The notes: generated from the letters alone by a model not told the origin. 64,000 bases of DNA from a virus (IMGVR_UViG_3300034101_003180:748-64747), one strand, 5' to 3'. Counted from the first letter of the stretch, positions 18,262 through 64,000 are shown. Made by a program: numbers and translations.

Positions 18262-18289
18262 TTGACAGTCCACAAAGAAGTGTTATATT
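18262..18289 (+). promoter_or_regulatory. sigma70-like early promoter, leaderless; back-to-back with - strand late box at 18251-18258
   Basis: TTGACA-16-TATATT, ATG 7 nt later. Confidence 0.75.
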
Positions 18290-18296
18290 TACAGTT

Positions 18297-46146: not shown

Positions 46147-46205
46147 AATATACTGCATGATTTAGCAAAGTCAAATCTTGACTATAAGTATTCATAGGCT
46201 ATACT
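46147..46205. promoter_or_regulatory. Divergent pair of sigma70-like promoters
   Basis: - strand TTGACT-16-TATATT; + strand TTGACT-16-TATACT ahead of tRNA cluster. Confidence 0.75.
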
Positions 46206-46214: not shown

Positions 46215-46286
46215 GCGGGTGTAACTCAGTGGTAGAGTGCTAGCCTTCCAAGCTTGCTGTCGAGGGTTCAAGTCCCTTCACCCGCT
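46215..46286 (+). tRNA. trnG: tRNA-Gly(UCC), no CCA
   Basis: GCGGGTG/CACCCGC, CTTCCAA loop, TTCAAGT. Confidence 0.9.
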
Positions 46287-46453: not shown

Positions 46454-46525
46454 GCCACCTTAGCTCAATGGTAGAGCCTTGCTTTTGTAAAGCAGAGGTT
46501 GCGGGTTCGAATCCCACAGGTGGCT
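46454..46525 (+). tRNA. trnT: tRNA-Thr(UGU), no CCA
   Basis: GCCACCT/AGGTGGC, TTTGTAA loop, TTCGAAT. Confidence 0.9.
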
Positions 46526-46528: not shown

Positions 46529-46610
46529 GCGAGTATACTCAAGCGGTCAACGAGGTCTGACTGTAAATCAGATGGCAAAGCCTACGGGAGTTCGAATCTC
46601 TCTGCTCGCA
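46529..46610 (+). tRNA. trnY: tRNA-Tyr(GUA), no CCA
   Basis: GCGAGTA/TGCTCGC, CTGTAAA loop, long variable arm. Confidence 0.9.
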
Positions 46611-46612
46611 TT

Positions 46613-47221
46613 ATGTACGATATCAATATCCCACATTTTTATTGTTTGTTAAGAAAAGAGCATCTTTACCAAAACAAAGATCATTTCTTTGAATATGAAA
46701 AGGTCGCAGTCTTTGGGGCACAATCAAGTGCTGGAAAGGCTTTGTTGTTTACAGTAATGTTGGATAACGGAACAATAAGAAGTAGAGTTCCAATTCATAT
46801 GTTATGCAGTAAAGAAGGCCCATCAGATCCATTAGATTACTTGCAACTTTGGGATTGTTTTTCTGAAAATGTTACAGTCACAACTTATAGTTTTTTAAAG
46901 GGTGCCAGAGCAAAAGTTATATTTAAAGATAAAAGCCACTCTTGGGGAAATTATAAAATGACATTTGATTGGTATGATAACCCATACAGCAACGAACCAT
47001 CTCAATACAAATGTCTTCACATGATTGAACTGGATAATGGAAATTATGCTCTACAACCAAACAATAGAATATTTTGGAAAGAAATGTCTTTCACAACCAA
47101 GCCATTTCCAGAAAAACCAGATTATAAAGTTGACACACAGGAGTATAGATGCGAGAATAAAAGCGATAGATGGATTATAAGTGATGATGATAATTATTAT
47201 TATGATATAAATCCTACATAA
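46613..47221 (+). CDS. Conserved-looking phage hypothetical protein
   Basis: NIP.FYC..RKE.LY, LQLWDCFS, LDNGNYALQPNNRI; start 2 nt after tRNA-Tyr. Confidence 0.75.
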   Translation: MYDINIPHFYCLLRKEHLYQNKDHFFEYEKVAVFGAQSSAGKALLFTVMLDNGTIRSRVPIHMLCSKEGPSDPLDYLQLWDCFSENVTVTTYSFLKGARAKVIFKDKSHSWGNYKMTFDWYDNPYSNEPSQYKCLHMIELDNGNYALQPNNRIFWKEMSFTTKPFPEKPDYKVDTQEYRCENKSDRWIISDDDNYYYDINPT

Positions 47222-47225
47222 TCAT

Positions 47226-47420
47226 GGTATTGTTGATATCGGATAGAAATGCATATGACACGGGAGTTCGAATCTCCCCGGATCCACTTTACGGGTCCGA
47301 CAGGCATCGATCAGTGCAGAGTATTGAAGAAGGAGATACCCGACACGGGTAACAAGTGTCGTAAATAAACAGTTGCAAATATAAAAGCCGCACCAATGCG
47401 GATGGCTGCTTAAAGCAGTG
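47226..47420 (+). ncRNA. ssrA: Circularly permuted two-piece tmRNA; tag ANIKAAPMRMAA*
   Basis: 3' half (GAC, T-arm, CGGATCC-A to 47286) precedes 5' half GGGTCCG (47293); G3:U70 pair; pk1-like element; tag 47375-47413. Confidence 0.9.
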
Positions 47421-47426
47421 GGGTTT

Positions 47427-47461
47427 CCCGGTTTTCCCGCGACTGAAAAACCGGGTTTTTT
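47427..47461 (+). terminator. Intrinsic terminator after tmRNA
   Basis: CCCGGTTTT...AAAACCGGG-T6. Confidence 0.8.
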
Positions 47462-47479
47462 ATTGCCATAAATATCTTC

Positions 47480-47992
47480 ATGCAGCACCCGAATGAGGGA
47501 TTTATTAGAAATTTTTTAGGCACCGACAAAGCCTACAAAGAACAACTATTAGCTGAAGAGAAAAAGCGAAGAGTTAATGAGTATTTTGCTTGTAAGAAAA
47601 ATAAGCAAAATATTCTTACAGAGCAAAGCAAAAATTCTATCAACAAAACTATTGAAAAAGTTTATTCAAATAGAAAATCAATTTCTTTGAATGAACAAAG
47701 AATAAATCCAAAGGAATGGAAGTTAATAAACACAGAATACGGTTTGTTTTATTATAATGAAAAACAAGATCTATGGATGAATACTTTTGGTGTTATTAAA
47801 AAATCAATTACAGAATTTATTCAAGTAATAGATTACAATGTAATTGATACCGATTCACCAAAAAGAAAAACACCAAATGCACCATCTAATTTCCAAGTTG
47901 AAATTTTAAATGAATTTGGTGATGTTAATTTAACTTGGAATGATAATTCTGATAATGAAAGTGGATTTGCAATTTATATAACTCAACAATAA
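47480..47992 (+). CDS. Late protein ending in the N-terminal half of an FN3 domain
   Basis: PNAPSNF...VNLTWNDNSDNESGFAIY then stop; CATAAATA upstream. Confidence 0.7.
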   Translation: MQHPNEGFIRNFLGTDKAYKEQLLAEEKKRRVNEYFACKKNKQNILTEQSKNSINKTIEKVYSNRKSISLNEQRINPKEWKLINTEYGLFYYNEKQDLWMNTFGVIKKSITEFIQVIDYNVIDTDSPKRKTPNAPSNFQVEILNEFGDVNLTWNDNSDNESGFAIYITQQ

Positions 47993-47995
47993 GTC

Positions 47996-49300
47996 ATGCC
48001 TACAATTTATAACTATAATTCATCTAAACACGATTTATACTATTACAATAGTGGACCAACTATTGATCCTCAAAATTATTCAAATAACGTTGCGGTATAT
48101 GGTGTTTCATATAACAATCAATTATACATCAATGATGTAGAATATGGTTTTACTTTTTCTGTAGATTTTAGCGGTATATCGGTAAGACCTAGGGGAGCAC
48201 CCGGTTATGGATTTGATACTTACAATGGACATTTGGCTTCAGGTATCACAATTAATCCAGCACCAGGAGGAACTATTGGATATCCAAATGCATTATCTTT
48301 TTCCATATTAGCAGAAGGTTTTACTTCTTGTTATTATCCTGGTTGCCCATCAGGAAACTTTACAAAAGCCTCAGATTACAATTATTGGAATAATGGTGTC
48401 TTTGGTTGTATATTAATTAGTCCAAAGCATTTTATTGCATGTCAACATTTTGTCGGCAGCACAACAGCAACAACCGTAAGATTTCTTGGAAAGAATAATC
48501 AAACTTATGTTAAGACTGCTCAAAAAGTAGTAGATCTTAGATCTTCACCAATCATTGCTCCCCCCGGCTATAGTTGGCCATATTTAACACCAGATATATG
48601 TGTTTTTGAAATTGATGATGGACAAGAATTTTCTTCATCAGATTTAAATCAAGTAAAAGCATATAAATTTATAAATCTATATGGAATACCCACAACAGCA
48701 CCAGCATTCTGTGTTACAGCACAATCACAAGTTGTGGTAACACAAGCACAACAATCCTTTTCAAATTATTATTTTAATTCTTCAACATACCCCAATGCAG
48801 CATATAGCGCATCTTTAAACTCTTCAGGCAATTTAGTTTTAAATTCTACCTTTGAACTTCGTGCTGGAGATAGCGGAACTCCAGCACTTGTTTATATACC
48901 TAGATTAAATGAAACATGTTTTGCATATTTGATTAGAGGTGGTGGTGGTATCTATGATCCATTTTTAACACCAGCAGATTCATATAAACAGTTTTTTGAT
49001 GCATTGCAGGAATATATATTTGACACATCTTCTTACAATATAGAACTAATAAATTACTTAGATCCACCTCCTGCACCACCTGTACCCGGACCTAGTGCAC
49101 CATATCCTGCATCATTAAATATAAATGGAAATACCTATAGTTTAGATACGTTAATAGATCCATCATCGGGAACAACTTTATCCTATACTGCAAATTTAGC
49201 CCCCGGTGCAACATACAGCATTGCAGTTGTGTCTTGGAACAAATATGGAATTTCCAACCCGGTTTATGTAGAAAACATTTATATTCCAGAAATTAGTTAA
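47996..49300 (+). CDS. Trypsin-like serine protease followed by C-terminal half of an FN3 domain
   Basis: ILISPKHFIACQH, PDICV, GDSGTP triad motifs; SYTANLAPGATYSIAVVSWNKYGIS. Confidence 0.75.
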   Translation: MPTIYNYNSSKHDLYYYNSGPTIDPQNYSNNVAVYGVSYNNQLYINDVEYGFTFSVDFSGISVRPRGAPGYGFDTYNGHLASGITINPAPGGTIGYPNALSFSILAEGFTSCYYPGCPSGNFTKASDYNYWNNGVFGCILISPKHFIACQHFVGSTTATTVRFLGKNNQTYVKTAQKVVDLRSSPIIAPPGYSWPYLTPDICVFEIDDGQEFSSSDLNQVKAYKFINLYGIPTTAPAFCVTAQSQVVVTQAQQSFSNYYFNSSTYPNAAYSASLNSSGNLVLNSTFELRAGDSGTPALVYIPRLNETCFAYLIRGGGGIYDPFLTPADSYKQFFDALQEYIFDTSSYNIELINYLDPPPAPPVPGPSAPYPASLNINGNTYSLDTLIDPSSGTTLSYTANLAPGATYSIAVVSWNKYGISNPVYVENIYIPEIS

Positions 49301-49317
49301 TAACATAAATATTTTAA

Positions 49318-49971
49318 ATGGCCCTTAATCCTTATTTCAATAATTATGCAGGAGAACAAAATTTAGTTGAAGATATAACTATTGAAGTTATAAAAGCAAC
49401 TGGAACAAATTGTGTTTATGTTCCAAGAGAATATCTAAACATTGATAAAGTTTTTGGTGAAGATCCTGGAACTAAGTTTATTAATTCTTACCCCATTGAA
49501 ATGTATTTGCTTACATATAAAGGATTTGAGGGTACTGATGTAATAAGTCAGTTTGGTTTGGAAATTCGGGACAAAGTTGTTTTAGTGTTGGCAAGAAAAA
49601 GATTTAAAGAAGAAGTTACAAATAACAATTCTAGCATAACCAGACCAAGAGAAGGTGATTTGATCTATTTTCCTTTGGCAAATTCTTTATTTGAAATAAA
49701 TTTTGTGGAACATGAAAATCCGTTTTATCCGCTTGGAAAATTGTATTCTTATACAATAACTGCAGAACTCTTCACTTACAGTTATGAGAAGATGAATACT
49801 AAAAACACATCAATTGATTCTGTTTACAACACAACTAAGGGAGCATGTGCTGCTAATATAATACCTATGAACAATATGTTGGGAACTACTGCAGGAATAA
49901 ATGATGTTCTTGAAAGTGAATCTTCTCTATATTCATTCAATGAAAATGATCCAAATGAAGCCTGCCCTTAA
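49318..49971 (+). CDS. gp14: Neck protein
   Basis: MALNPYF...EQNLVEDI..E.IK..G....YVPR, RPREGDLIYFP...LFEI.FVEHE.PFY.LGK. Confidence 0.92.
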   Translation: MALNPYFNNYAGEQNLVEDITIEVIKATGTNCVYVPREYLNIDKVFGEDPGTKFINSYPIEMYLLTYKGFEGTDVISQFGLEIRDKVVLVLARKRFKEEVTNNNSSITRPREGDLIYFPLANSLFEINFVEHENPFYPLGKLYSYTITAELFTYSYEKMNTKNTSIDSVYNTTKGACAANIIPMNNMLGTTAGINDVLESESSLYSFNENDPNEACP

Positions 49972-50015
49972 TAAATTTATATAAATATTTCAAGATAATA
50001 AAACAAAGGCAAAAA

Positions 50016-50405
50016 ATGCAAAACAATGACCATCACTACAAGTTAAGATGTGCAAAATTAAATGAAATGAAGAAAAAGTTAATAGCAGATTTAAATTTGA
50101 TTAATGAGCAATTGGCAGCGCAATCAATGCCACAAGGTGTTCAAACTCAACCAAATGCTGTTAATAAAGGAAAACAAGATCCAAAAAAATCAATTGAGGC
50201 ACCAGTTAAAATGCAACATGGTTTTGCTCATACAGGAAATGCTGCAGAAGCACAAGAAGATATTTTAAAAAGTTATTCCGATAACCCCGAAACAGAAGAT
50301 CAAGAAATGGCAAAAGATGCTTCTTGGCAATCTGTAAATTCTGCAGTTGGAAATTATATGACACAACAAGTTGCTAAACTTGCAAAATCACAATACATGG
50401 CCTAA
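50016..50405 (+). CDS. Hypothetical late protein
   Basis: 129 aa, LINE site. Confidence 0.6.
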   Translation: MQNNDHHYKLRCAKLNEMKKKLIADLNLINEQLAAQSMPQGVQTQPNAVNKGKQDPKKSIEAPVKMQHGFAHTGNAAEAQEDILKSYSDNPETEDQEMAKDASWQSVNSAVGNYMTQQVAKLAKSQYMA

Positions 50406-51127
50406 TGAAAACTTTTGGTCAATTTATCACAGAGTCATCAGATCTGACTTTAAGATACCATAATGAATTAAATTCAAAGTTGTGGCATGGTGATAAATTA
50501 AAACCAGAAGTACGTGAAAAATTAATAGACATAGGAAATGCTTGGGCAGAATTTTCTAAGATCCCCCAAGAAGCAGTCAAAGATATGATTCTTGTTGGTG
50601 GAAATGCAAATTTTAATTATACAGATTATTCAGATATAGATTTACATCTTTTGGTAGATAAAGAAGAGATGCCTGATTGTCCAGATTTGTTGGATGACTT
50701 TTTAAAAGATAAAAAACAATTGTGGTCATTATCACATGATATTTCGATATATGGGCACGATGTAGAATTATATGCACAAGATATAAATGATGAATTTCCA
50801 GCAAGTCAAGGAGTTTATAGTTTAACTCAAAACAACTGGATGGTTCCTCCAACAAAACAAGAAGTAAATTTTGATGATCCAAATCTTATAAGAAAAATTA
50901 ACGATTATACAAATAAGATTAATGATTTGATAGATTCAAATGCAGAGGATGAATCTTTTAAAAAATTGAAGAAAAAGTTTGGTGATATGAGAAAAGCAGG
51001 TATTAAAAAGGCTGGTGAATTTTCTCAAGAAAACTTAATTTTTAAAGAACTTAGAAATAAGGGATATTTGGATAAAATGAATCAATATATCAAATCCAAA
51101 GAAGATGAAAAATTAAGTTTAAAATAA
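50405..51127 (+). CDS. Pol-beta superfamily nucleotidyltransferase with capsid-targeting-like N-terminus
   Basis: LVGGNANFNY..YSDIDLHL, VELY; MKTFGQFITE. Confidence 0.82.
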   Translation: MKTFGQFITESSDLTLRYHNELNSKLWHGDKLKPEVREKLIDIGNAWAEFSKIPQEAVKDMILVGGNANFNYTDYSDIDLHLLVDKEEMPDCPDLLDDFLKDKKQLWSLSHDISIYGHDVELYAQDINDEFPASQGVYSLTQNNWMVPPTKQEVNFDDPNLIRKINDYTNKINDLIDSNAEDESFKKLKKKFGDMRKAGIKKAGEFSQENLIFKELRNKGYLDKMNQYIKSKEDEKLSLK

Positions 51128-51153
51128 TATAAATAATTAACACAGGATAAAAA

Positions 51154-51819
51154 ATGGATCCAACATATAGAAAAATCGAACAATTGCTCACTACAACTCA
51201 AATGCTCGCAGAAGAATTAGAAATCGTTTATGATATTCTAGACAATCTTTTTGAAGAGGAAGATTATGATCTCTCTGTAGAAGCACTTCTTGAAAAGAAG
51301 AACTGGATTCAAAAGGCTATCAAGAAAGAGGGTTCCCTTCGTAAGACTTTGAAAGCAAAGAAGGGAAAGAATATCCCAGCATCCAAACTAAAGAAAGCTG
51401 CAGAGAAGGGTGGAAAGACTGGTAAGCGTGCTCGTCTTGCTATGACTCTTCGTAAACTAAATGAAACTGTAGATAGAAATGGTGATGGAGACATTGATGC
51501 TTCTGACTTTGCACAACAACAATTTGAATGGACTCAAATTGGTGGTTGGGATGTCCCATCAAGAGAATTTGGTGAAGGATGGTTGGCTGCAACAGAACTT
51601 GGAAGACAGGCATCAGCAGCAAAATATGGCTCACCACAACAAGTAGAACTTTCTAGAGCCGCGCTTTCTGCAAGAAAGCAAATGGAAGCCCACCCACATT
51701 TTGGTGAATTTAGAAAAGGACATCCAAGAAAAAGAAATCAACCAAAAGGACCCGAAATGGGCCCATATATCCCAGCCTCACCAAGTGAACGGGCTTCAGG
51801 ATTGTTTGGAGCAGACTAA
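51154..51819 (+). CDS. Putative internal protein with basic module and EF-hand-like motif
   Basis: NWIQKAIKK.G.LR...IP..KL.KAA...GKTGKRARLA.TLRK; DRNGDGDIDASD. Confidence 0.7.
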   Translation: MDPTYRKIEQLLTTTQMLAEELEIVYDILDNLFEEEDYDLSVEALLEKKNWIQKAIKKEGSLRKTLKAKKGKNIPASKLKKAAEKGGKTGKRARLAMTLRKLNETVDRNGDGDIDASDFAQQQFEWTQIGGWDVPSREFGEGWLAATELGRQASAAKYGSPQQVELSRAALSARKQMEAHPHFGEFRKGHPRKRNQPKGPEMGPYIPASPSERASGLFGAD

Positions 51820-51848
51820 CTCCCCACTAGGAATAGTATTCTTAGTCC

Positions 51849-51881
51849 GGCAACCCCGAGTTAATCGGGGTTGTTTCTTTC
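51849..51881 (+). terminator. Intrinsic terminator
   Basis: GGCAACCCCGA-GTTAA-TCGGGGTTGTT-TCTTT. Confidence 0.75.
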
Positions 51882-52139
51882 TACAAAAGCAACCCAGTCT
51901 TGATGAACTACATGGTTGCCTTGATATCCATCTTTAATCTTACTTACATCCCACCAGATAATATCACCAACTTGGATATCCTCAGTAAGTTTATTACCAA
52001 CTGCTTCTACTTTTGCTGGGACAATTTTTGAACTTGATCGTTCATTGTATATAATTCCTGCAGCAGTAGTCTTTTGACCACCGATCAAAGACTTTGCGAG
52101 TATCCATTTACCTACTGGTTTCATTGGTTTGTCTTTCAT
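51861..52139 (-). CDS. groES: GroES/Cpn10 co-chaperonin
   Basis: MKPVGKWIL...KTTAAGII...VEAVG...IQVGD; start 2 nt after tRNA-Gln. Confidence 0.8.
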   Translation of the reverse strand: MKDKPMKPVGKWILAKSLIGGQKTTAAGIIYNERSSSKIVPAKVEAVGNKLTEDIQVGDIIWWDVSKIKDGYQGNHVVHQDWVAFVERNNPD

Positions 52140-52141
52140 AA

Positions 52142-52212
52142 TTCCTTCGCTAGGATTCGAACCTAGAAAGAGAGATCCAAAGTCTCCCGTGTTACCGTTA
52201 CACCACGAAGGA
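52142..52212 (-). tRNA. trnQ: tRNA-Gln(UUG), no CCA
   Basis: TCCTTCG/CGAAGGA, CTTTGGA loop, TTCGAAT. Confidence 0.9.
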
Positions 52213-52758
52213 GTGAACCTTGGCACAATAATTATTCATTATAATGCCAGAGGCAGTACCAACATTGATGCTTCTCACAGAACCATACTGAGGAATGTAA
52301 AGAAGATCATCACACATATCTAGAACGTTTTCAGGAACTCCAATTTGTTCCTGCCCAAAGATCATAATATAATGCACATTGGGGTCAAAGTCAAATGCAT
52401 TTATGTCTTTTGCTTCACGTACATTGTCAATTCCCAATAGTTTAACTTTGTTTTCATGCTTGGAAATAGTTTCTTCAATGTAGGAGCCGAGATCTTCAAT
52501 GCTCCGGACATGACGAAGGTGGGTGTAGTGATGAGTACCGACAGTCCCCCGCCTATCGTACTTTTTATTCCCATAGATTACGACTTCTTTCGCCAGAAAC
52601 GCATTGCTGTTGCGTATAATGGTAGCAATATTAAAATCGTTCCCAATGTTGCAACACACAACAGCATAGTTATGGCGCTTGCTGTCAAGATTAGTGAGTA
52701 TAGCTTCGTCATCCCAATATTTATAATGGTCTATGAGATTACGGGTTTCCGGATTCAT
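52198..52758 (-). CDS. TrmH/SpoU-family RNA methyltransferase
   Basis: N...DFNIATIIRNSNAF, IFGQEQIGV, IPQYGSVRSINV..ASGI SPOUT motifs; stop lies inside tRNA-Gln. Confidence 0.88.
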   Translation of the reverse strand: MNPETRNLIDHYKYWDDEAILTNLDSKRHNYAVVCCNIGNDFNIATIIRNSNAFLAKEVVIYGNKKYDRRGTVGTHHYTHLRHVRSIEDLGSYIEETISKHENKVKLLGIDNVREAKDINAFDFDPNVHYIMIFGQEQIGVPENVLDMCDDLLYIPQYGSVRSINVGTASGIIMNNYCAKVHSFVV

Positions 52759-52900
52759 ATACAGCTAGTTTTACTTCAAGATCTTTTACACGGGCTTCCA
52801 AACGTTCAAACACTATGAGTTGCATAAAAAATGTTATGCATAAAATTGCTGATGCAAACAACGCATCATAGTATGTGAAATATTTTTTCTCGTTATTCAT
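52739..52900 (-). CDS. Small single-TM protein
   Basis: MNNEKKYF...ALFASAILCITFFMQLIVF. Confidence 0.55.
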   Translation of the reverse strand: MNNEKKYFTYYDALFASAILCITFFMQLIVFERLEARVKDLEVKLAVYESGNP

Positions 52901-53138
52901 CTTTTCCCTTTCCCCATCCACCACCATTTTCATATTCCTTTAAAATTGAATGACTTGTATCTACATGATCTTTATAAATTTCATTGAGTCTATGTTGCAT
53001 TGGAAAATGCTTCAAAACTCTTGCAGCCCGTTCTCTCACATCTGACGGAACTTTGGGCGTGTGAGCAGGATTTAAAAGATCATAAAGAAAGTTTTTGACG
53101 GCAACTAAACTATGATACTCTTCGTGTGGTAATGTCAT
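52893..53138 (-). CDS. BPSL0761-family-like small protein
   Basis: MTLP.E...L.....FL.DL.....TP.VP..VR.RA...L.HFP; start 2 nt after tRNA-Glu. Confidence 0.7.
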   Translation of the reverse strand: MTLPHEEYHSLVAVKNFLYDLLNPAHTPKVPSDVRERAARVLKHFPMQHRLNEIYKDHVDTSHSILKEYENGGGWGKGKDE

Positions 53139-53140
53139 AA

Positions 53141-53214
53141 TGATCCCTAGGGGATTCGAACCCCTGTTATGGCCTTGAAAGGGCCGTGTCCTAGACCGAC
53201 TAGACGAAGGGACC
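53141..53214 (-). tRNA. trnE: tRNA-Glu(UUC), no CCA
   Basis: GGTCCCT/AGGGATC, CTTTCAA loop, TTCGAAT. Confidence 0.9.
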
Positions 53215-53217
53215 AGT

Positions 53218-53382
53218 TCATTCGTTCTTAGCTTTGATTTCAAGGGCAAGGAAAGCAAGAATCATACCAACAACACTTCCAACAACAGCACCTTCGTAAT
53301 TTTTGTAAAAGAGAAATCCAACGAGATTGATGGCGATCAAAATTATCATTGGAACCATGAGTTTGTTCAGTACATTTTTCAT
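53218..53382 (-). CDS. 54-aa two-TM protein (not in ORF track)
   Basis: MKNVLNKLMVPMIILIAINLVGFLFY...; TTGACT-16-TAATAT 6 nt upstream. Confidence 0.65.
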   Translation of the reverse strand: MKNVLNKLMVPMIILIAINLVGFLFYKNYEGAVVGSVVGMILAFLALEIKAKNE

Positions 53383-53436
53383 ATGCTTATATTAGCATAC
53401 AGGGGAGCATAGTCAAGAAATTGTCTAAATAATTTT

Positions 53437-54060
53437 ATGGACTACCTTACAAAATATTATAAAAATTTATCGGAAGATTTATCTCATAAAGTTAAGTTGT
53501 TAGAAAATTTTCTTTATGAAATGGATACACAGATTTCTAGAGGAAACGTATCAGCAGAAACATCTGCATCTTCTGCACCTGAGATAGACATATATACCAG
53601 TCCTTTTGATCCCCGTTTTTTTGACTCTGATAAGCCGACCTATCCGGAGCTTCCGGGTCTTCCTAGAAGACCAGACAGGAGAGTTCCAAGCGATATAGAC
53701 GGTCCAGAATTTCGTAGAGGAGCGCCACCACATCCTGGACCACGACCAGAACCAAGAGATGGAGAAACCGAAGAACAATATCAGGAACGTCTTCGTGCAT
53801 GGGAAGCGGCAGAAAGACGGAGATCGATGTGGTTTAAGATTCGTAGCTACAATGTAGATAGTGTTCCTGGTGGAGAATATTTAGACATAAGAGTTTGGCC
53901 AAATCCTCCAAAAATGCCGTATCGTCGTATTGATAATGGAAATGGTGGATACAATTATGATGCATTGCCACCATTCAGAGTAGGTGATACGTACATTACT
54001 CAAAATGGAGATGTATGGCGTGTGAATCAACAAGGATATTGGGAACAGGTAAGTAGCTAA
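53437..54060 (+). CDS. Putative internal protein; N-terminus paralogous to 44139
   Basis: MDYLTKYYKNLSEDL vs MNYLTNYYKNLSEQL. Confidence 0.7.
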   Translation: MDYLTKYYKNLSEDLSHKVKLLENFLYEMDTQISRGNVSAETSASSAPEIDIYTSPFDPRFFDSDKPTYPELPGLPRRPDRRVPSDIDGPEFRRGAPPHPGPRPEPRDGETEEQYQERLRAWEAAERRRSMWFKIRSYNVDSVPGGEYLDIRVWPNPPKMPYRRIDNGNGGYNYDALPPFRVGDTYITQNGDVWRVNQQGYWEQVSS

Positions 54061-54061
54061 T

Positions 54062-55171
54062 TTATAGAAACTTATTTACTTCCTGTATTCTCTCAGCGAT
54101 CCATTCCATACAGTTCACAGCCATACTATTTCCAAGAACTTTATACCTGTGACCATCTGGACACTCAGGCTTTCCACGCCAAGGAATTAAAGTATAATCA
54201 TCGGGAAAGCCCTGAAGTCTTTCACATTCACGGGGAGTCAGTTTACGCACTCGACTTCTCTGTTGGGTTGGCACAGAAACAAATAAGCCACACTCGTCAC
54301 CAGCAGGACCACCTGAGCCTTTCGCCCATTTGCTGGTTACGGTATCTGAGCAAGTAGGATCGTTGCCACCGTAGAATGGCATGTTCACGATGGCAGCAAA
54401 CGAAGCATTATCTCTTGCCAAAGTATGACAAGGATCACCGGGCACACGACTCTGCCTATTGATGGGTGCAGTTATTTGGAAGAGGTCGTAGGGAACGGGG
54501 ATGTAGGTGTCTCCGTCTTCTCGGTGTCTTGACCAGCCTCTTGCTCCAAGGCACTTTGCAATATCTTCGGGAGAACCTTCCCCCGCTTTGCTGCGCGACT
54601 TAGAATGCCTTTGCAGGCTTTGGGACTCAAAAAGAACTTGGGCTGCACTGGTTGTGTCTCCAAGACATCCGACAACGAAGACACGTCTCCTACGCTGCGG
54701 CACGGCAAAGGGGTGCCCGTGTGTTCTGACCCATTGAGCGTCCAAGATCCGGTAGGCCCACCCATACCCCAAGTCCCCCAGCGCCCCGAGGAAGGTTCCA
54801 AAATCCCTTCCTCCGTTGCTGGACAGAACACCGGGGACATTTTCCCACACAATCCATCGGGGGCGCTGACTCCTAGCGATCTCAAGGTAAGTGAGCATGA
54901 GTCCTCCACGGGGATCGGAGAGTCCTCCTCTGAATCCTGCCAAAGAGAAAGACTGGCACGGAGTACCCCCAACGAGGAGGTCAATTTGTTCTTTGATTTC
55001 CCATTTTTCATAATTTGTCATGTCTCCAAAGTTTGGAACATTCGGATAATGGTGAGCCAATACAGCAGATGGAAATGGATCAACCTCGCTGAATCCAACG
55101 GGTTGCCACCCAAGAGGATGCCATGCAACCGTAGCGGCTTCAATACCAGAACATACTGATAAGTATTTCAT
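54062..55171 (-). CDS. C5 cytosine DNA methyltransferase
   Basis: SVCSGIE, GGTPCQSFS, WENVPG, PQRRRRVF, LTPRECERLQGFP, GNS. Confidence 0.93.
   Translation of the reverse strand: MKYLSVCSGIEAATVAWHPLGWQPVGFSEVDPFPSAVLAHHYPNVPNFGDMTNYEKWEIKEQIDLLVGGTPCQSFSLAGFRGGLSDPRGGLMLTYLEIARSQRPRWIVWENVPGVLSSNGGRDFGTFLGALGDLGYGWAYRILDAQWVRTHGHPFAVPQRRRRVFVVGCLGDTTSAAQVLFESQSLQRHSKSRSKAGEGSPEDIAKCLGARGWSRHREDGDTYIPVPYDLFQITAPINRQSRVPGDPCHTLARDNASFAAIVNMPFYGGNDPTCSDTVTSKWAKGSGGPAGDECGLFVSVPTQQRSRVRKLTPRECERLQGFPDDYTLIPWRGKPECPDGHRYKVLGNSMAVNCMEWIAERIQEVNKFL
54472..55011 (-). CDS. Nested alternative-frame polypeptide resembling M.EcoHK31I beta subunit (start may be 54840)
   Basis: SLSDVLE...KFFLSPKAC.GIL.RA.KRGK.LP..L..AL in a shifted frame within the MTase. 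Confidence 0.65.
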   Translation of the reverse strand: MKNGKSKNKLTSSLGVLRASLSLWQDSEEDSPIPVEDSCSLTLRSLGVSAPDGLCGKMSPVFCPATEEGILEPSSGRWGTWGMGGPTGSWTLNGSEHTGTPLPCRSVGDVSSLSDVLETQPVQPKFFLSPKACKGILSRAAKRGKVLPKILQSALEQEAGQDTEKTETPTSPFPTTSSK

Positions 55172-55599
55172 ATTAATTCGTTAGAAGAATCAGTTGTATG
55201 TGGCACACCGTCTCTTATTCGCTCCAAATATCTGACGGCATTCAAAACACCTTCAAGATCATCACCTAATTTTCCAATTCCAATATTACAGAGATCACAT
55301 ATCCAACCACGAAACTTATTGGTCTTGTAATCATGATCTAAAATAAGTTTTCCTTTTGGTCTATCTTTCGGACTTTTTCCACAACATTGACATAATTCTG
55401 TAACAGGAGGTGCAGTCTTATGTATTTCTCTTATAACTTTATCAAATTTTCTACCACAATCCACACAACGAGGATGATAATAATTTCTATCTTTTCTAAA
55501 AGAAGAAATGGGTTTTCTTTCCTTGCAACGAATACAAATTTTTGTAGTAATCAATTTAGGTTGACTTACTTCAAAAATTTTGTTTAATTCTTCTTTCAT
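55168..55599 (-). CDS. Endonuclease VII-like His-Me finger nuclease
   Basis: CxxC repeats, LDHD.....RGWIC..CN..IG...D; start 8 nt after tRNA-Pro. Confidence 0.85.
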   Translation of the reverse strand: MKEELNKIFEVSQPKLITTKICIRCKERKPISSFRKDRNYYHPRCVDCGRKFDKVIREIHKTAPPVTELCQCCGKSPKDRPKGKLILDHDYKTNKFRGWICDLCNIGIGKLGDDLEGVLNAVRYLERIRDGVPHTTDSSNELI

Positions 55600-55607
55600 T
55601 GTATTAG

Positions 55608-55681
55608 TCGGGCATGCTGGATTTGAACCAACGACATCTTGCTCCCAAAGCAAGCACTCTACCAAGCTGAGTTAATGCCCG
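55608..55681 (-). tRNA. trnP: tRNA-Pro(UGG), no CCA
   Basis: CGGGCAT/ATGCCCG, TTTGGGA loop, TTCAAAT. Confidence 0.9.
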
Positions 55682-59769: not shown

Positions 59770-60270
59770 CAATTTTACATCCCGTCCATAATTTTCATCC
59801 TGTCCAGTAAATTATTCTTTATATCCCGTCCTAGGTCTTGTCCTAGCTGCACTGGGCCCCATAACCCGGATAGTAGTGATTATTATTATTTTTATGGGGC
59901 CTGTCCGGCTGAATCCTGTCCCATAACCAGCAGGTAGCCCAGTACCAAGCCCGATAACATAGCCACAGTTATCAGAACCTTCCAGAAGGGTCCGATAACA
60001 GTATAGCACAAAGCCCGATAACTGCAAGAGTTATGGGATCCATGATCATCGATATTATGGGTCTCAGGACTACGTGTATTATGGGGCTCAGTGATCAAGG
60101 TCCCATAACTATAGCATGCAGGTCCGATAAGTCAAGGATCCAGTGGCCAATAACTTGGACCAGGCTCCCAAGCACCAGAGCTCGGAGCTCTGACTCATCC
60201 AGTCCAAGAATATTATTATTCTTTGCGGGGTCCATCCCGTCCCGTCCAGGCCGTCCCAGGCCGTCCAGCT
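59770..60270. repeat. Non-coding array of short repeats (CCSATAAC about 13 copies; ATCCYGTCC-like about 9 copies)
   Basis: Motifs directly visible in both orientations; no credible ORF. Confidence 0.75.
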
Positions 60271-60320
60271 ACTATCCGAGAAATCCAGAAGGTAAAGGCA
60301 CCCTTCTGGATAGTAGCCGG
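60268..60320. other. Nested inverted-repeat element, copy 1
   Basis: GCTACTATCC..ATCCAGAAGG..CCTTCTGGATAGTAGC. Confidence 0.65.
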
Positions 60321-60336
60321 TGCCCCCCGCCAAAGA

Positions 60337-60379
60337 CATAGGACCAGTCCAGGCTCTCTCCTTCCTGGCTGGTCCTATG
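60337..60379 (-). terminator. Long hairpin downstream of vWA gene
   Basis: CATAGGACCAG.CCAGG-loop-CCTGG-CTGGTCCTATG. Confidence 0.6.
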
Positions 60380-60397
60380 CAATTGACTAAGCTTTAG

Positions 60398-62584
60398 TTA
60401 GGCGGTAAGCCCTCCGAAGGCAGAGAGGGAGTAGAGTCCCTGATCCATCTTGCGGAGGGGCTGTCCCGCGATGATGTCCACATACTTGGAGAGGAACACG
60501 CGGCTACCTCCACGCTGCCCCATCGTCTTGACGAAGGTGTTCTTCACCTTGACGAAGGAACCCTTCTCAGCAATCGCGTCCTCGTCCTTGACGATCTTGG
60601 GGGTCTTGATGAGGAAGAACGCATCGTATCCGGGGAAGGTGTCCTCCACGACGAGGATGCAGCCGTCCTTATACTGCTCACGGGCCTTCAGGTAGCGGGG
60701 AGCGTCCTCAATGCGGTAGGAGCGACCCCGGACACTCACCCACTCCTTCTGAGTGACGCAGAAGTTTTGGTAGTCGTGTTCGGAGAGGTTACGCTGACCG
60801 ACGAACATCCCGACGATCCGGGCATTGAGGGTAGACCGCAGAGACTCCATGATCGTGGCGATCACTCCGTTGGGCAGAGTCACGGCGTAGTTTTCGCAGG
60901 GGAACCGAATCACGGTATCGCTGATCTCGTTGATGACCGTGAGCGAAGTGTTCTCCCCGGTGCGGTAGAACATCGTACCCGCCTTGCTATCGTCCATCAC
61001 GCCGATGCTGTTGGGCTGACCATCCGTGACGAGCATGAGGGTCGGAATCTGAATCTTGTTCGCAGTCACCCACTCCTTCATCAACTGCGAAACCATCATC
61101 ATGGCCTCCACGGTGGGAGTACCGCCCATCGGCAGGAAGCCACGGTGGCCGTCCTTGCAGTACGAGGTATAGAGTCCCGCGAGAATCTTGTCCCGCTTCT
61201 CCTTGCTGTCCGCAGACGAGGCGAGGTTCACCAACTTGCAATTATAAACTCTAACCGAAGTCGGGGAGGGATTGACGAGAACGGGATCGGAGGGATGCGT
61301 GAACCCGACACCCGCGTAGTCCTCGGGATTCTTCTTGTAATACTCCTTCTGCGCCTGCTCACGGTCACGGGTGTAGAGCGGGTGCGCCATGTCCGTGAAG
61401 GCGTACACCTCAAACGGGATCTTGGCCTTCTCGCAGAACCAAACCAACTGAAGCACCTGAAGGATGCAATTCCCGATGGACGAAGCCATCGACCCTGAGA
61501 AGTCGATCACGAACATGATGCCGTGATTCTTACCCTCCTGCTTGATGATCTTGGAGAGGAAGATATCGTCGTGAGTCCGGTACTGATGCAGGCGATCAAG
61601 GTCGAGCATCCCGGTCTGCTTGGGGCGCTCACGACGAATCTCGTCTGCTGCCTTACGGCGCTCAAACTGCGCGACCAACTGCCGCACAAACGCATCGGAC
61701 TCGCTGACGAACTGACGGTAGGGCGGGAGCGGGTCGATGCCAAAGACATGGCGCTGGCCCATGATCTCCATGAGGTCGGTGGTGCTGACGATCTGCTTGT
61801 CCAAGTTGGCAAGCGGGGAGAGCGTGATGGTCGAAGCGTAGAAAGTCTCCCCGTCCTTCTTGCCGATGGCAGCGGACATATCAAGGAGCTCACTTCCGGG
61901 ATCACCTTCCCCGGTCATGGAACTGCCCTCACCGGGAACGACCTTGCCCGTCTTGTCCCCCTTGCCGTTGCCCTGCGCTGCAAACTTCTTCTTCAGCGCA
62001 TCAACAGACTTGGCGAACTGCTGCGAACCGTACAGACGCTTGGCAAGGTCGATCACCTCATCGAAAGTCTCAACGGCAAGCACCTCGGCCACCACGGCCA
62101 TCTCGTCCTCGCTCATGGCGAAGGAGAGGAATCCGGGAATGCCCCACTTGAGGTAGGTGTTGAGGCGGTTCAGGGCAGATGCCTTGCTGAAGTCCTTGCC
62201 CTTGAACTTGAAAAGGTCGGTGTCGATGATCTCCTTGTAGCCCAAGAAGAAGTCACGCCGCGTCCCCGGATACTTGTCCTTCATCAGACGCTCAATGCGG
62301 ACATCCTCAATGACATTCGCAATGATCTGAAGGGTCTGAATGCAGTAGCCCTCCTCGCCTGCCTGCTTGAGCAGCACCTCGGAACGCTCATAGGGAGTCC
62401 ACAAGGCGTGGCTGATCTCATGCGCGACGAGCATGGACTGTAGGGTTTCGGAGACATTCCAAACGGGCATGACGAGGTGGCGGTTCTTGACATCGAAGGA
62501 TGCCGTGCCTGCACTAGCGTCAAAGGCGAATGAAATGTTCTCGGTGGCGAGGGCGCGGGCAAAGATGGAGAGAGACTTGTTCAT
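60398..62584 (-). CDS. HExxH metallopeptidase-like plus vWA domain protein (CobT-like partner of MoxR ATPase)
   Basis: VAHEISHAL, EDVRIE, IDFSGSM MIDAS, GGTP, VTDG. Confidence 0.88.
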   Translation of the reverse strand: MNKSLSIFARALATENISFAFDASAGTASFDVKNRHLVMPVWNVSETLQSMLVAHEISHALWTPYERSEVLLKQAGEEGYCIQTLQIIANVIEDVRIERLMKDKYPGTRRDFFLGYKEIIDTDLFKFKGKDFSKASALNRLNTYLKWGIPGFLSFAMSEDEMAVVAEVLAVETFDEVIDLAKRLYGSQQFAKSVDALKKKFAAQGNGKGDKTGKVVPGEGSSMTGEGDPGSELLDMSAAIGKKDGETFYASTITLSPLANLDKQIVSTTDLMEIMGQRHVFGIDPLPPYRQFVSESDAFVRQLVAQFERRKAADEIRRERPKQTGMLDLDRLHQYRTHDDIFLSKIIKQEGKNHGIMFVIDFSGSMASSIGNCILQVLQLVWFCEKAKIPFEVYAFTDMAHPLYTRDREQAQKEYYKKNPEDYAGVGFTHPSDPVLVNPSPTSVRVYNCKLVNLASSADSKEKRDKILAGLYTSYCKDGHRGFLPMGGTPTVEAMMMVSQLMKEWVTANKIQIPTLMLVTDGQPNSIGVMDDSKAGTMFYRTGENTSLTVINEISDTVIRFPCENYAVTLPNGVIATIMESLRSTLNARIVGMFVGQRNLSEHDYQNFCVTQKEWVSVRGRSYRIEDAPRYLKAREQYKDGCILVVEDTFPGYDAFFLIKTPKIVKDEDAIAEKGSFVKVKNTFVKTMGQRGGSRVFLSKYVDIIAGQPLRKMDQGLYSLSAFGGLTA

Positions 62585-62590
62585 GCGTGT

Positions 62591-62620
62591 ATCTTACCAT
62601 ACCGGGGTGCGAAATTGCAA
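62591..62620 (-). promoter_or_regulatory. sigma70-like early promoter, leaderless
   Basis: TTGCAA-18-TAAGAT, ATG 6 nt later, A-rich UP element. Confidence 0.7.
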
Positions 62621-62673
62621 GCCCATACTAAAGTTTTTTTAAAGTCCTATAACCGGCGGGGGGTCCATGGTGT

Positions 62674-62729
62674 CCGGCTACTATCCGGGACCATCCAAAA
62701 GCAGCTGCTTTTGGATAGTAGTCTGCCGG
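62674..62729. other. Nested inverted-repeat element, copy 2
   Basis: GCTACTATCC..ATCCAAAAGC-AGCT-GCTTTTGGATAGTAG. Confidence 0.65.
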
Positions 62730-62734
62730 TTCCT

Positions 62735-62767
62735 GGAGGGGACGGCGTAGCAGATGCCGTCCCCTCC
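62735..62767 (-). terminator. GC-rich hairpin downstream of 62784 gene
   Basis: GGAGGGGACGGCGT-AGCAG-ATGCCGTCCCCTCC. Confidence 0.55.
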
Positions 62768-62783
62768 ACCGCAGAGCAACAGA

Positions 62784-63005
62784 TTAGGCCGGAACTGCGT
62801 TGAACAGAACCGTCAGGTCGTAGGTACGGGTGCTGACGCTGCTCTTGCACTCCTTCAGCACCCAAGTCGGGATGCCCTTCATGTTGATGCTGTTTGCGAC
62901 TGCAAGAAGATCGGACTTCTTGAACTCGTCAGCTTTGATGCCGTTGGACTCTGCGTGAGTCTTTGCGGCCTGAATGAAGCGATTGCGCTTGTTGAGGTAA
63001 GGCAT
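62784..63005 (-). CDS. Small protein, possibly winged-helix
   Basis: 73 aa, strong AGGAGG RBS. Confidence 0.7.
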   Translation of the reverse strand: MPYLNKRNRFIQAAKTHAESNGIKADEFKKSDLLAVANSINMKGIPTWVLKECKSSVSTRTYDLTVLFNAVPA

Positions 63006-63023
63006 TGTTAGTTCCTCCTTTCT

Positions 63024-63968: not shown

Positions 63969-64000
63969 GTTTGAAACGGTATCACAAGTTTCGGGTGCGG

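Follow-up and report, generated by a model that had tools for sequence, protein, structure and literature searches.

Junctions between tRNA genes and start codons suggest that tRNA excision frees end-translated mRNAs in a lake-water phage

In the lake-water phage considered here, tRNA genes run into the start codons of the following genes so directly that the arrangement suggests tRNA excision as a means of freeing mRNAs translated from their 5′ ends. The window, a stretch of 64,000 nucleotides of viral DNA, contains three tRNA genes (Tyr, Gln and Glu) whose discriminator A is followed by TT and then by ATG, at 46613, 52139 and 53138, opening reading frames of 202, 92 and 81 codons, respectively. 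A sequence-only reading of this DNA had interpreted such junctions as sites where tRNA processing creates near-leaderless mRNAs, and the interpretation is partly supported by the sequence comparisons. The junctions into credible genes were seen again by ARAGORN, by Rfam and in the sequence itself, the gaps of only 2 nt indeed leave no room for a Shine–Dalgarno (SD) sequence, and tRNA-Pro is confirmed to be followed by 8 nt (CTAATACA) and ATG 55599, the start of a 143-codon ORF encoding an Endonuclease VII domain.

tRNA genes and adjoining reading frames in the window

ARAGORN and Rfam agree on the tRNA coordinates, the ARAGORN calls for Glu and Pro being one base longer. Rfam scores of 54–67 bits against a gathering score of 29 indicate a canonical tRNA fold, the cloverleaf is the minimum free energy (MFE) fold of the junction tRNAs in their sequence context, and an encoded CCA is found in 0 of the 7 Rfam-confirmed tRNAs. 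Being CCA-less and without CC at positions 74–75, these tRNAs have the features of RNase Z substrates, and with gaps of 2 nt (Tyr, Gln, Glu) and 8 nt (Pro) they directly abut the following genes, as in mitochondrial-type punctuation. Given the base composition (A.329, T.306, G.193), the chance of an ATG at one set offset is about 0.019, and that of at least three of seven tRNAs having such an ATG is about 2e-4, the requirement for a long ORF not yet included. The gaps are too short to hold a promoter or terminator; upstream, promoter-like sites occur at 53416–53389 and 46178–46205.

The tRNA-Glu and tRNA-Gln junctions belong to one putative minus-strand operon. Its predicted sigma-70-like promoter (53389–53416, TTGACT-16-TAATAT) lies 6 nt before ATG 53382, a leaderless geometry, and its first cistron, a small hydrophobic ORF of 54 aa (53218–53382), stops 3 nt ahead of tRNA-Glu(UUC) (53141–53214; ARAGORN, Rfam, MFE). 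This CCA-less tRNA ends with discriminator A 53141, and beyond TT 53140–53139 begins an 81-aa ORF of the BPSL0761 family (52893–53138). Further along, a SpoU/TrmH-like RNA 2′-O-methyltransferase (52198–52758) has its last 15 nt, including the stop codon TAA 52200–52198, within tRNA-Gln(UUG) (52142–52212; ARAGORN, Rfam, MFE), likewise CCA-less, with discriminator A 52142 and TT 52141–52140 ahead of a GroES-like co-chaperonin of 92 aa (51861–52139). An SD-like GAAGGA is present here, inside the acceptor stem of tRNA-Gln. On the same strand, the CCA-less tRNA-Pro(UGG) (55608–55681; ARAGORN, Rfam) contains the stop codon of an upstream 167-aa ORF (56175–55672) and precedes the SD-less gene of the 143-aa Endonuclease VII-domain protein (55168–55599). 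Many ordinary genes of the phage are without a clear SD. The sequence-only reading had placed these tRNAs in early operons, a designation that reflects sigma-70-like promoters only.

The plus-strand junction lies in a tRNA/ORF202/tmRNA operon that presumably starts at a sigma-70-like promoter (46178–46205, TTGACT-16-TATACT, a consensus match only), 9 nt upstream of tRNA-Gly(UCC) (46215–46286; ARAGORN, Rfam), which is CCA-less and followed by TT. The CCA-less tRNA-Thr(UGU) (46454–46525; ARAGORN, Rfam) is separated by TTG from tRNA-Tyr(GUA) (46529–46610; ARAGORN, Rfam, MFE), also CCA-less, with discriminator A 46610 and TT 46611–46612. ORF202 (46613–47221, 202 aa), whose start agrees with homologue N-termini, belongs to phrog_3704, a small "PurM/ferredoxin"-annotated protein of cyanophages and pelagiphages, and stops 4 nt ahead of a permuted, two-piece tmRNA (47226–47413, tag ANIKAAPMRMAA). 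The latter scores 53.6 bits with RF04321 and 34.9 bits with beta_tmRNA, under the gathering score of that second model. Past the tmRNA, a hairpin with a T-run can be seen by eye at about 47427–47461.

Junctions and promoters in related phages

Relatives were drawn from IMG/VR and counts were made over unique junctions; as many junctions are inherited, unique sequences are not independent events. Position 75 is T in 130 of 132 unique tRNA 3′ junctions and position 74 is T or C in all 132 (TT 105, CT 25, TA 2), with CC or CCA in none. Since this Y74-U75 trails essentially every tRNA of the group whatever follows, the TT is a tRNA trailer signal rather than part of the mRNA, and it is not peculiar to the three junctions. 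Y74-U75 appears to be a tRNA 3′-processing determinant, the ATG being set as near to it as possible.

Between discriminator and ATG, 30 of 145 unique junctions have 2 nt and 12 have 3 nt, and spacers of 0, 1, 4 or 11 nt are absent from this set. Spacers of 5–10 nt (21/145) are AU-rich and SD-less, and those of 12–14 nt (19/145) have in most cases an AGGAG-type SD. Longer spacers nearly always have a strong SD, which indicates that an SD is used where room exists. Among the 42 direct junctions (2–3 nt), an SD core (GGAG, GAGG or AGGA at −16 to −4) occurs in 10 and is missing in 32. Direct junctions involve eight downstream families, behind tRNA-Tyr, Gln, Glu (three families), Pro, Ile and Gly, and whole-record scans of five relatives add tRNA-Lys; in those five, an ATG-ORF of at least 50 codons begins 2–3 nt past 8 of 38 unique tRNAs, with about 1.5 ATGs expected. 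Random tRNA-to-ATG distances had been named in advance as grounds for rejecting the idea; the distances are sharply non-random, so that this refutation fails. Beyond the group, IMG/VR holds at least 106 tRNA-verified tRNA-A-TT-ATG matches. Among the matches listed, 60 of 103 scorable ones open at least 60 codons, in at least 26 protein families; for every TTATG of those loci the figure is 23% (p = 3e-14, with no correction for relatedness). Taken together, these counts indicate that the junction pattern is neither chance nor private to one phage.

Individual genes illustrate how the layout varies. ORF202 homologues at about 50% identity start at the corresponding residue and have an upstream tRNA in 0 of 61 loci (L020–L080); among 18 loci of closer relatives with upstream sequence, tRNA-Tyr lies 2–3 nt before the ATG in 13 and tRNA-Asn 7–10 nt before it in four. 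The gene behind tRNA-Gln, called groES in the sequence-only reading, is real, and its identity is weak: PF00166 (Cpn10) gives 20.8 bits, under the cut-off of 21.1, and the NCBIfam GroES model covers residues 6–63 with 24.3 bits against a cut-off of 109, for which reason only the label "GroES-like" is used. Its 44 loci comprise 12 direct junctions (2–3 nt), 15 with a 12–24-nt spacer (mostly with AGGAG), 16 away from a tRNA and one tRNA-less. Compared with SD-led relatives the protein has a 5-residue N-terminal extension, and where the SD is lacking the ORF is longer by exactly 5 codons (3 in L096/L097), reaching the tRNA boundary, which argues for selection of the boundary position rather than mere deletion. 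Residue 6 is Ile in five direct-junction relatives, leaving the junction ATG as the only start. For the 81-aa gene, 9 of 22 loci are direct (relatives at 48–57% identity included), two have TTGGAGGTTTTT and 11 have no adjacent tRNA; its SD-led relatives use the same ATG as the direct-junction form. Direct and SD-spacer layouts thus interchange for one gene among relatives, and from homologue N-termini and the Ile at GroES residue 6 the junction ATGs are judged to be true starts.

The sequence-only reading had also linked the junctions to leaderless promoters, and this fits: the group's promoters look suited to making leaderless mRNAs. The 336 unique strong promoter-like sites include 140 followed by an ATG-ORF no more than 80 nt away, and the distance from −10 box to ATG is exactly 6 nt at 51 of these and 7 nt at 11; the 65 sites at 5–7 nt precede 23 protein families. 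T4, used as a control, has this geometry at 0 of 8 promoters sampled. In the window two sites lie at 6 nt under strict criteria, and more can be seen by eye with a weaker −35. In a simple promoter scan, promoter-like sites were no commoner than in shuffles (43 vs 40.1 ± 6.4), and the significance is confined to the distance-to-ATG distribution. A −10 box exactly 6 nt before the ATG implies that promoter-proximal genes of this group are routinely translated from leaderless mRNAs.

Tentative mechanism and alternative explanations

The reading favored here, to which we give roughly even chances, is that cuts by RNase P and an RNase Z-type enzyme release mRNAs with the 5′ end (U)U-AUG, on which translation begins at that end. 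Operons with internal CCA-less tRNAs would be transcribed as polycistronic RNAs, host RNase P would free the 5′ terminus of each tRNA, and an RNase Z/BN-type enzyme would cut endonucleolytically at or just past the discriminator, the kind of 3′ maturation needed by tRNAs that encode no CCA. Downstream of that second cut there would be a 5′-monophosphate mRNA starting (U)U-AUG (UUAUG, UAUG and AUG are all possible), on which host ribosomes would initiate 5′-end-dependently, as already needed for promoter-derived 5′-AUG mRNAs. One transcript would give both a mature tRNA and a translatable mRNA, and the operon from 53416 to 51861 would yield three mRNAs, each beginning at or beside its own first AUG. 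Host RNase Z/BN and a host capacity for leaderless translation are assumptions of the model; a search of the window fragment and of five related records, all but one of them incomplete, found no gene for an RNase Z-type or CCA-adding enzyme. In uncut RNA, folded in context, the acceptor helix comes to within 3 nt of the AUG, inside the space needed by an initiating ribosome. Y74-U75 without CCA fits an endonucleolytic 3′ cut, a reaction reported to be inhibited by C residues (PMC7479834, PMC1874595). As to the leader, initiation on leaderless mRNAs is described as about 2-fold lower per added 5′ nucleotide in Caulobacter and as inhibited by a single added nucleotide in E. coli (PMC8459731), so that a 2–3-nt leader would be sub-optimal, and from the sharpness of the 6-nt promoter spacing an exact 5′-AUG seems to matter in this phage group too.

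Compaction could account for the junctions by itself if spacers had been deleted to the minimum tolerated by the tRNA (Y74-U75) and the free 5′ end were irrelevant, the genes relying on SD-independent internal initiation on A/U-rich RNA or being weakly translated, with the tRNA removed or not. Genes are closely packed everywhere in the genome (of 51 same-strand gene pairs in the window, 28 overlap or are separated by at most 3 nt), so a short gap alone is unremarkable and needs no special selection; the SD-less 5–10-nt spacers at 21 of 145 junctions mean that SD-less initiation on short leaders may be within the host's reach in any case, and the scarcity of clear SDs in ordinary genes and the poor performance of 2-nt leaders in model bacteria point the same way. 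We nevertheless hold this explanation to be rather unlikely: close coding sequences can couple termination to reinitiation, whereas through a tRNA no ribosome arrives, and the folded helix next to the AUG, the strong SD in nearly all spacers long enough for one and the exact extension of the SD-less GroES ORF to the tRNA boundary all speak against it.

In an either/or switch, which we consider unlikely, each transcript would give a mature tRNA or a protein, not both: the tRNA would be made by cutting within the downstream gene and then trimming back with a 3′ exonuclease, the uncut precursor would be translated, and tRNA folding or processing would lower expression of the adjacent gene, while stops within tRNA-Gln and tRNA-Pro would set upstream translation in competition with tRNA folding. 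Translation and folding do overlap physically, upstream ORFs ending within a tRNA at 41 of 154 unique 5′ contexts (23 of them at +15 in tRNA-Gln), and exonucleolytic tRNA 3′ maturation is given as the main route in E. coli-like bacteria (PMC7479834); but the invariant non-C Y74-U75 and the absence of CCA suit a precise endonucleolytic cut over trimming, the uncut precursor has neither an SD nor an accessible AUG, and the switch offers no reason for the sharp preference for minimum distance (2 > 3 > more). It is very improbable that the acceptor stem's 3′ strand serves as an SD in transiently unfolded tRNA (GAAGGA in tRNA-Gln, AGGGA in tRNA-Glu): GAAGGA does precede the ATG by 3 nt, and a core at −16 to −4 is present in 10 of 42 direct junctions, yet the other 32 lack one, tRNA-Tyr (GCTCGCA) has none, the 3–4-nt spacing is below that of functional SDs and the sequence is locked in a 7-bp helix. 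That the junction ATGs are chance or annotation artefacts is hardly credible. Among the 106 tRNA-verified IMG/VR matches listed, 31 open fewer than 30 codons, but three of seven in the window would be improbable by chance, as calculated above, the N-termini of ORF202, the 81-aa protein and GroES match those of homologues, and long ORFs are strongly enriched among the listed matches.

Known systems and wider meaning

Literature searches found no description of tRNA punctuation in phages. In animal mitochondria, transcripts are punctuated by tRNAs, as in the Ojala-Montoya-Attardi model. As there, the phage tRNAs abut protein genes with zero to few nucleotides between, and excision by RNase P and RNase Z would free SD-less mRNAs with the AUG at most 3 nt from the 5′ end. 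The phage differs in depending on host enzymes, in being known here from sequence, in punctuating some genes only, beside SD-led and promoter-derived leaderless ones, and in having complete stop codons, some inside the next tRNA, whereas mitochondrial ones are completed by polyadenylation. The CCA-less tRNAs of T4 are matured by host RNase BN (RNase Z) and CCA-adding enzyme, and thus likewise need a host RNase Z-type enzyme; they are clustered, we know of no report that they release translatable mRNAs, and the sampled T4 promoters differ in lacking leaderless geometry.

Promoter-made leaderless mRNAs occur in Thermus phages. They have also been described in Actinobacteria and Deinococcus, and for lambda cI and prophage repressors in E. 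coli (PMC4681348). With a 5′-end AUG, no SD and a preference for AUG they resemble the proposed phage mRNAs, and −10-N6-ATG is the same design, but their 5′ end comes from transcription initiation (a triphosphate) and not from RNA processing. In plant mitochondria, tRNA or tRNA-like t-elements are described as setting mRNA 5′ and 3′ ends via RNase P/Z (PMC1920247); this is an organelle system with long UTRs, not known to be linked to leaderless initiation. In E. coli, endonucleolytic cutting by MazF just before the AUG was proposed to make leaderless mRNAs, a model irreproducible in other laboratories according to a review (PMC9031893), and MazF is a stress toxin rather than a tRNA-processing enzyme. 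A Haloferax crRNA has been released from a t-element-flanked construct by RNase P/tRNase Z (PMC4946936), and engineered polycistronic tRNA-gRNA arrays are described as releasing a defined RNA by the same enzymes; these systems differ in being synthetic, and the RNA released is not an mRNA.

It is tempting, though we think it improbable, to extend tRNA excision to a lake-phage lineage with mitochondria-like expression, in which it would be the main operon-cutting route, combined with tmRNA rescue and found in many phage groups. Every unit would then begin with a 5′-terminal AUG, created by a promoter or by a tRNA 3′ cut. Cutting would strip the stop codons from upstream genes that end in tRNAs, such as the TrmH-like methyltransferase, which reaches 15 nt into tRNA-Gln in no fewer than 23 unique relatives, and the ORF ahead of tRNA-Pro, producing non-stop mRNAs; ribosomes stalled on these would be rescued, and the proteins tagged, by the permuted tmRNA that the phage itself encodes. 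The tmRNA and the ORF202 mRNA would be excised from one RNA operon, the latter freed nearly UTR-less between tRNA-Tyr and tmRNA. Phage tRNA genes would serve as expression punctuation as well as codon supply, across the at least 26 gene families in IMG/VR.

If tRNA excision does free these mRNAs, tRNA punctuation would extend beyond organelles and would be a working expression strategy of bacteriophages. Phage tRNA genes would acquire a second role, as processing signals creating translatable 5′ ends; tRNA supply would be tied to expression of the neighboring gene, and the phages would offer a natural system in which to study translation of 5′-monophosphate, near-leaderless mRNAs in bacteria, as well as a natural counterpart to engineered tRNA-processed polycistrons. 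Gene callers that expect an SD will misplace starts in such phages (GroES M1 rather than M6 is an example), and the −10-N6-ATG and tRNA-YU-ATG rules could aid annotation and host prediction in this large group of uncultured lake phages.

tRNA-ATG junctions and their recurrence among relatives

Three of the seven Rfam-confirmed tRNAs in the window, whose RNA genes also include one permuted tmRNA, run into a protein-coding gene across an identical junction. The tRNA-Tyr (+) ends at A46610 and is followed by TT and the ATG at 46613 that opens the 202-codon ORF202; tRNA-Gln (-) ends at A52142, followed by TT and the ATG at 52139 of a 92-codon GroES-like ORF; and tRNA-Glu (-) ends at A53141, followed by TT and the ATG at 53138 of an 81-codon ORF. 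A fourth, tRNA-Pro (-), ends at A55608 and is separated by CTAATACA from the ATG at 55599, which opens a 143-codon ORF with an Endonuclease VII domain. ARAGORN and Rfam agree on the tRNA ends, and CCA is encoded by none of the window's tRNAs. The composition of the phage group gives a probability of ~0.019 for an ATG at one fixed offset and, by our own arithmetic, ~2e-4 for three of seven tRNAs. These tRNA ends and the sequence bear out, exactly as written, the three A-TT-ATG junctions and the nearby ATG after tRNA-Pro that the sequence-only reading had described. Its wider proposal, that tRNA processing generates near-leaderless mRNAs, has gained strong comparative sequence evidence, the interpretation itself being supported in part.

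That reading had also called for a histogram of tRNA-to-ATG distances. Measured from the discriminator to the first ATG-ORF at 145 unique junctions, many of them inherited and not independent events, the distances peak at 2-3 nt (2 nt in 30, 3 nt in 12; 0, 1, 4 and 11 nt never) and form a second group at 12-14 nt (19/145), mostly composed of Y-T, a GGAG-type SD and a further 5-7 nt. Spacers of 5-10 nt (21/145) are AU-rich and contain no SD, and the remaining junctions have a longer spacer or no ORF. This distribution thus points to two compact layouts behind a tRNA, in which the AUG either comes at once or follows a minimal spacer with an SD.

The two bases after the discriminator are themselves constrained. 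T stands at position 75 in 130 of 132 unique tRNA 3' junctions and at position 74 in 107, the other 25 having C74; CC or CCA never follows the discriminator, and this Y74-U75 is independent of the next feature, be it an ATG, a further tRNA, the -35 box of a promoter or an SD. The TT accordingly belongs to the tRNA, and Y74-U75 is the pattern to be expected from a determinant of 3'-endonuclease cleavage. Two studies describe RNase Z as cutting CCA-less precursors directly 3' of the discriminator, with strong inhibition when C residues stand at that site (PMC7479834; PMC1874595). Candidate 5' ends of the downstream RNA would be UUAUG, UAUG or AUG. With C74 present, the Synechocystis enzyme reportedly cuts one base away from its usual site.

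The direct junction, with 2-3 nt between discriminator and ATG and no SD, recurs at all three genes. Among the 19 closest ORF202 loci, 18 of them with upstream sequence and one without, tRNA-Tyr lies 2-3 nt before the ATG in 13/18 (TT in 8, TTC in 5); tRNA-Asn stands 7-10 nt before it in four, and in the relative L012 the ATG comes 210 nt after tRNA-Tyr. The GroES gene has a direct junction at 12 of 44 loci and a 12-24-nt spacer, mostly with AGGAG/GGAG, at 15; it does not adjoin the tRNA at 16 and lacks a tRNA at one. For the 81-aa gene the figures are nine direct among 22 loci, eight of these at only 48-57% protein identity, two SD-led and 11 without an adjoining tRNA. By clustering, direct junctions precede eight protein families, and the tRNAs involved are Tyr, Gln, Glu (before three different genes), Pro, Ile and Gly. 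A tRNA scan of five whole related records (92-126 kb), a sample independent of the downstream gene, found an ATG-ORF of at least 50 codons at 2-3 nt behind 8/38 unique tRNAs with enough flank, and TTATG before a shorter ORF at two more. The eight include a new direct pair, tRNA-Lys followed by a 90-98-aa ORF, for which one record has TTCAGGAGGACACT-ATG instead.

Start codons and promoter spacing

Three lines of evidence argue that the junction ATGs are real starts. From 591 IMG/VR relatives of ORF202, 80 were kept, and 61 loci at ~50% identity have no upstream tRNA, yet begin at the same first residue (M-L/K-N-x-N). The 81-aa gene (52893-53138, -) uses the same ATG (MTLP...) in two relatives with an SD spacer (TTGGAGGTTTTT). 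In the GroES-like protein (51861-52139, -) the NCBIfam GroES alignment begins at residue 6, so that residues 1-5 are an extension that goes exactly as far as the tRNA boundary. A GroES start at the internal Met of residue 6 is ruled out by five direct-junction relatives (L084, L087, L088, L090, L092) that have Ile there, which leaves the junction ATG as their sole possible start.

Promoter geometry points to the same kind of 5' end. Strong intergenic promoter matches in the window lie 5-7 nt before ATGs; candidate sigma-70-like promoters with the -10 box close to the ATG of the first gene occur at 16402-16437 (ATG 16435), at 18262-18299 (ATG 18297) and, on the minus strand, at 46174-46138, 40666-40629, 53416-53380 (ATG 53382) and in the 60398 region. 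In 976 kb of loci of the phage group (L001-L177), scanned with at most one mismatch per hexamer, 336 unique promoter-like sites were found, 140 with an ATG-ORF within 80 nt. The distance from -10 box to ATG, taken to the second ATG in TATAnT-ATGnnnATG cases, is exactly 6 nt in 51 of these, 7 nt in 11 and 5 nt in three, and these 65 sites precede 23 protein families. A generic promoter scan gave no excess of promoter-like sites over shuffles; the signal is in the distance to the ATG alone. A small control, the first 50 kb of T4, had 0/8 sites at 5-7 nt. Loci retrieved by an IMG/VR search for the tRNA-A-TT-ATG pattern, a set that partly overlaps the phage group, again peak at 6 nt (34 sites). 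With a -10 box 6 nt before an ATG, transcription would normally begin on the A of the start codon, so the host would have to translate 5'-AUG mRNAs routinely. A T-loop or acceptor sequence acting as the -10 box is ruled out at the junctions by its distance of ~15 nt, not 6, to the ATG.

Of the promoter matches in the region the strongest (TTGACA-16-TATAGT, 11/12; 57495-57432, -) has a terminator-like hairpin ~20-35 nt downstream, and its product could be a small RNA or a very short transcript.

tRNA processing as a proposed source of near-leaderless mRNAs

Since these tRNAs lack CCA, their function requires cutting or trimming precisely at the discriminator. A cut by an RNase Z/BN-type endonuclease would leave a 5'-monophosphorylated downstream fragment with 0-2 nt ahead of the AUG; in E. 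coli, according to a review, leaderless initiation is favoured by a 5' phosphate (PMC9031893). Alternatively, the end could be reached by trimming back from a cut inside the gene, which would destroy the mRNA. Uncut RNA would present the AUG only 3 nt after the end of the acceptor helix (fold prediction), with neither an SD nor an arriving ribosome. The best-supported reading is accordingly that excision makes the downstream mRNA translatable, a proposal we hold at even balance. Its cost would lie in the leader: leaderless initiation in Caulobacter is about halved per added 5' nucleotide and in E. coli is inhibited by one nucleotide already, according to one paper (PMC8459731), so a UU leader would reduce efficiency. 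Against the proposal also stand the promoter spacing, whose sharp peak at 6 nt suggests that the precise 5' end is important here, the SD-less spacers of 5-10 nt, which indicate that the host may be able to initiate on short leaders lacking an SD, and the compactness of the genome throughout, with 28/51 same-strand gene pairs overlapping or at most 3 nt apart by crude ORF calls.

If excision does release translatable mRNAs, the operon at 53416-51861 (-) would fall into three units, each with its 5' end at or beside the first AUG: ORF54, a small hydrophobic protein; ORF81 with a small ORF and the TrmH-like gene; and the GroES-like gene. On the plus strand the operon would run from a promoter at 46178 through tRNA-Gly, tRNA-Thr, tRNA-Tyr and ORF202 to the permuted tmRNA, and the released ORF202 mRNA would carry 2 nt ahead of its start codon and 4 nt beyond its stop. 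PolyA_pol (CCA-adding), Lactamase_B_2 (RNase Z type) and SmpB gave no match within the window's record fragment, nor did the first two in five related records, which, most records being incomplete, is not evidence of absence; the processing enzymes are assumed to be supplied by the host.

ORF202, a PurM-like gene (phrog_3704), stands between tRNA-Tyr, 2 nt before it, and the permuted tmRNA, 4 nt after it (46529-47413, +), in what looks like an operon of RNA genes that has a promoter of its own and a hairpin followed by a T-run. The order tRNA-Tyr, ORF202, tmRNA recurs in relatives (L001-L014), and their tmRNA tag peptides differ (ANIKAAPMRMAA, ANELAMAA, ANYMAMAA, ATTKAAPMRMAA). By eye, the tmRNA acceptor piece ends in CGGATCC-A and the coding piece, GGGTCCG, begins only ~8 nt on (47270-47300, +), without an encoded CCA, so an excised linker would be very short. 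A tRNA-like remnant seen by eye between tRNA-Gly and tRNA-Thr was not upheld, Rfam in e-value mode finding nothing there.

On the upstream side of the tRNAs, the preceding ORF's stop codon lies inside the tRNA at 41/154 unique tRNA 5' contexts. In 23 unique sequences, among them that of the window (52198-52212, -), the last 15 nt of the TrmH/SpoU-like methyltransferase gene overlap tRNA-Gln, and the 167-aa ORF before tRNA-Pro ends 9 nt into that tRNA (55672-55681, -); a PEP-CTERM tail seen by eye on the latter ORF had no Pfam or NCBIfam match. RNase P cleavage at tRNA-Gln and tRNA-Pro would leave upstream mRNAs without a stop codon, and it is tempting, if speculative, to link such non-stop mRNAs to the phage's tmRNA.

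The phage and the distribution of the arrangement

The IMG/VR record, carried by lake-water metagenomes (24 lake-water DNA runs), is linear and comprises 64,747 bases, 64,000 of them in the window, with a CheckV estimate of 36% completeness. Among its products are a family B DNA polymerase, a class II ribonucleotide reductase, CobS/CobT-like proteins and collagen-repeat proteins; the collagen triple-helix repeats occur in two neighbouring large proteins (536 and 761 aa; 3935-7834, +), probably fibre proteins. GC is 53-59% in the last 4 kb (60000-64000), which hold the CobT-like and CobS-like genes, and about 36-42% before. Four related records (L148-L151, L161-L167) likewise have segments of 50-58% GC, carrying tRNAs of their own (Arg, Leu, Lys, Ile), beside segments of about 36-40% GC, and the two-composition genome therefore seems real and not a chimeric assembly. 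A tRNA-Ser(GCU) called by ARAGORN only (3729-3820, +) lies inside an ORF (3544-3933), has no T-loop motif, is absent from Rfam at the gathering threshold and is probably spurious.

Searches of cultured phages by megablast and tblastn gave no match to the region or to the 434-aa ORF. ORF202 matches 114 cultured-phage records, every one below 60% identity; the best is a Flavobacterium phage (57%), at whose locus no tRNA adjoins the homologue, and the remainder are cyanophages and pelagiphages. The CobS-like protein search gave a single MAG match (58%). The tmRNA region (47173-47480, +) has beta_tmRNA as its best clan match, at 34.9 bits far under the gathering score of 84, and the 81-aa protein, at 43.7 bits, passes the cut-off of 35 for the BPSL0761 family; these are weak hints of a betaproteobacterial host and are not relied on.

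Beyond the relatives, the pattern GGTTCGAATCC-N10-ATTATG was found in at least 118 IMG/VR stretches, and ORF length behind the junction served as the test. Of the 121 matches listed in the retrieved loci, ARAGORN recognises 106 as tRNAs. Apart from three that are cut off by the end of the locus, 60/103 of these open at least 60 codons, compared with 23% of all TTATG strings within these loci (p = 3e-14, with no correction for relatedness). These ORFs, again among the matches listed, fall into 26 families and follow tRNA-Leu, Met, Val, Ile, Lys and others. At 12 loci of an unrelated set of IMG/VR contigs (L189, L194, L206, L223 and eight more), A-TT-ATG joins tRNA-Leu(UAA) to an HNH-like endonuclease gene, and homing of endonuclease genes to sites beside tRNAs may raise the number of direct junctions.

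The literature search, which covered material outside supplements and most subscription journals, found no description of tRNA punctuation or of leaderless mRNAs derived from tRNA processing in phages or bacteria, and tables of transcription start sites in supplements could hold unremarked examples. The nearest work concerns mitochondria and plastids, RNAs engineered with tRNA flanks, leaderless mRNAs made directly by promoters and the contested MazF model. The phage arrangement, placed here by its genomic features alone, would work like mitochondrial tRNA punctuation. To judge from the contigs compared, the tRNA-A-TT-ATG arrangement is widespread in uncultured phages, and the whole lineage of the present phage seems to be built around leaderless first cistrons.
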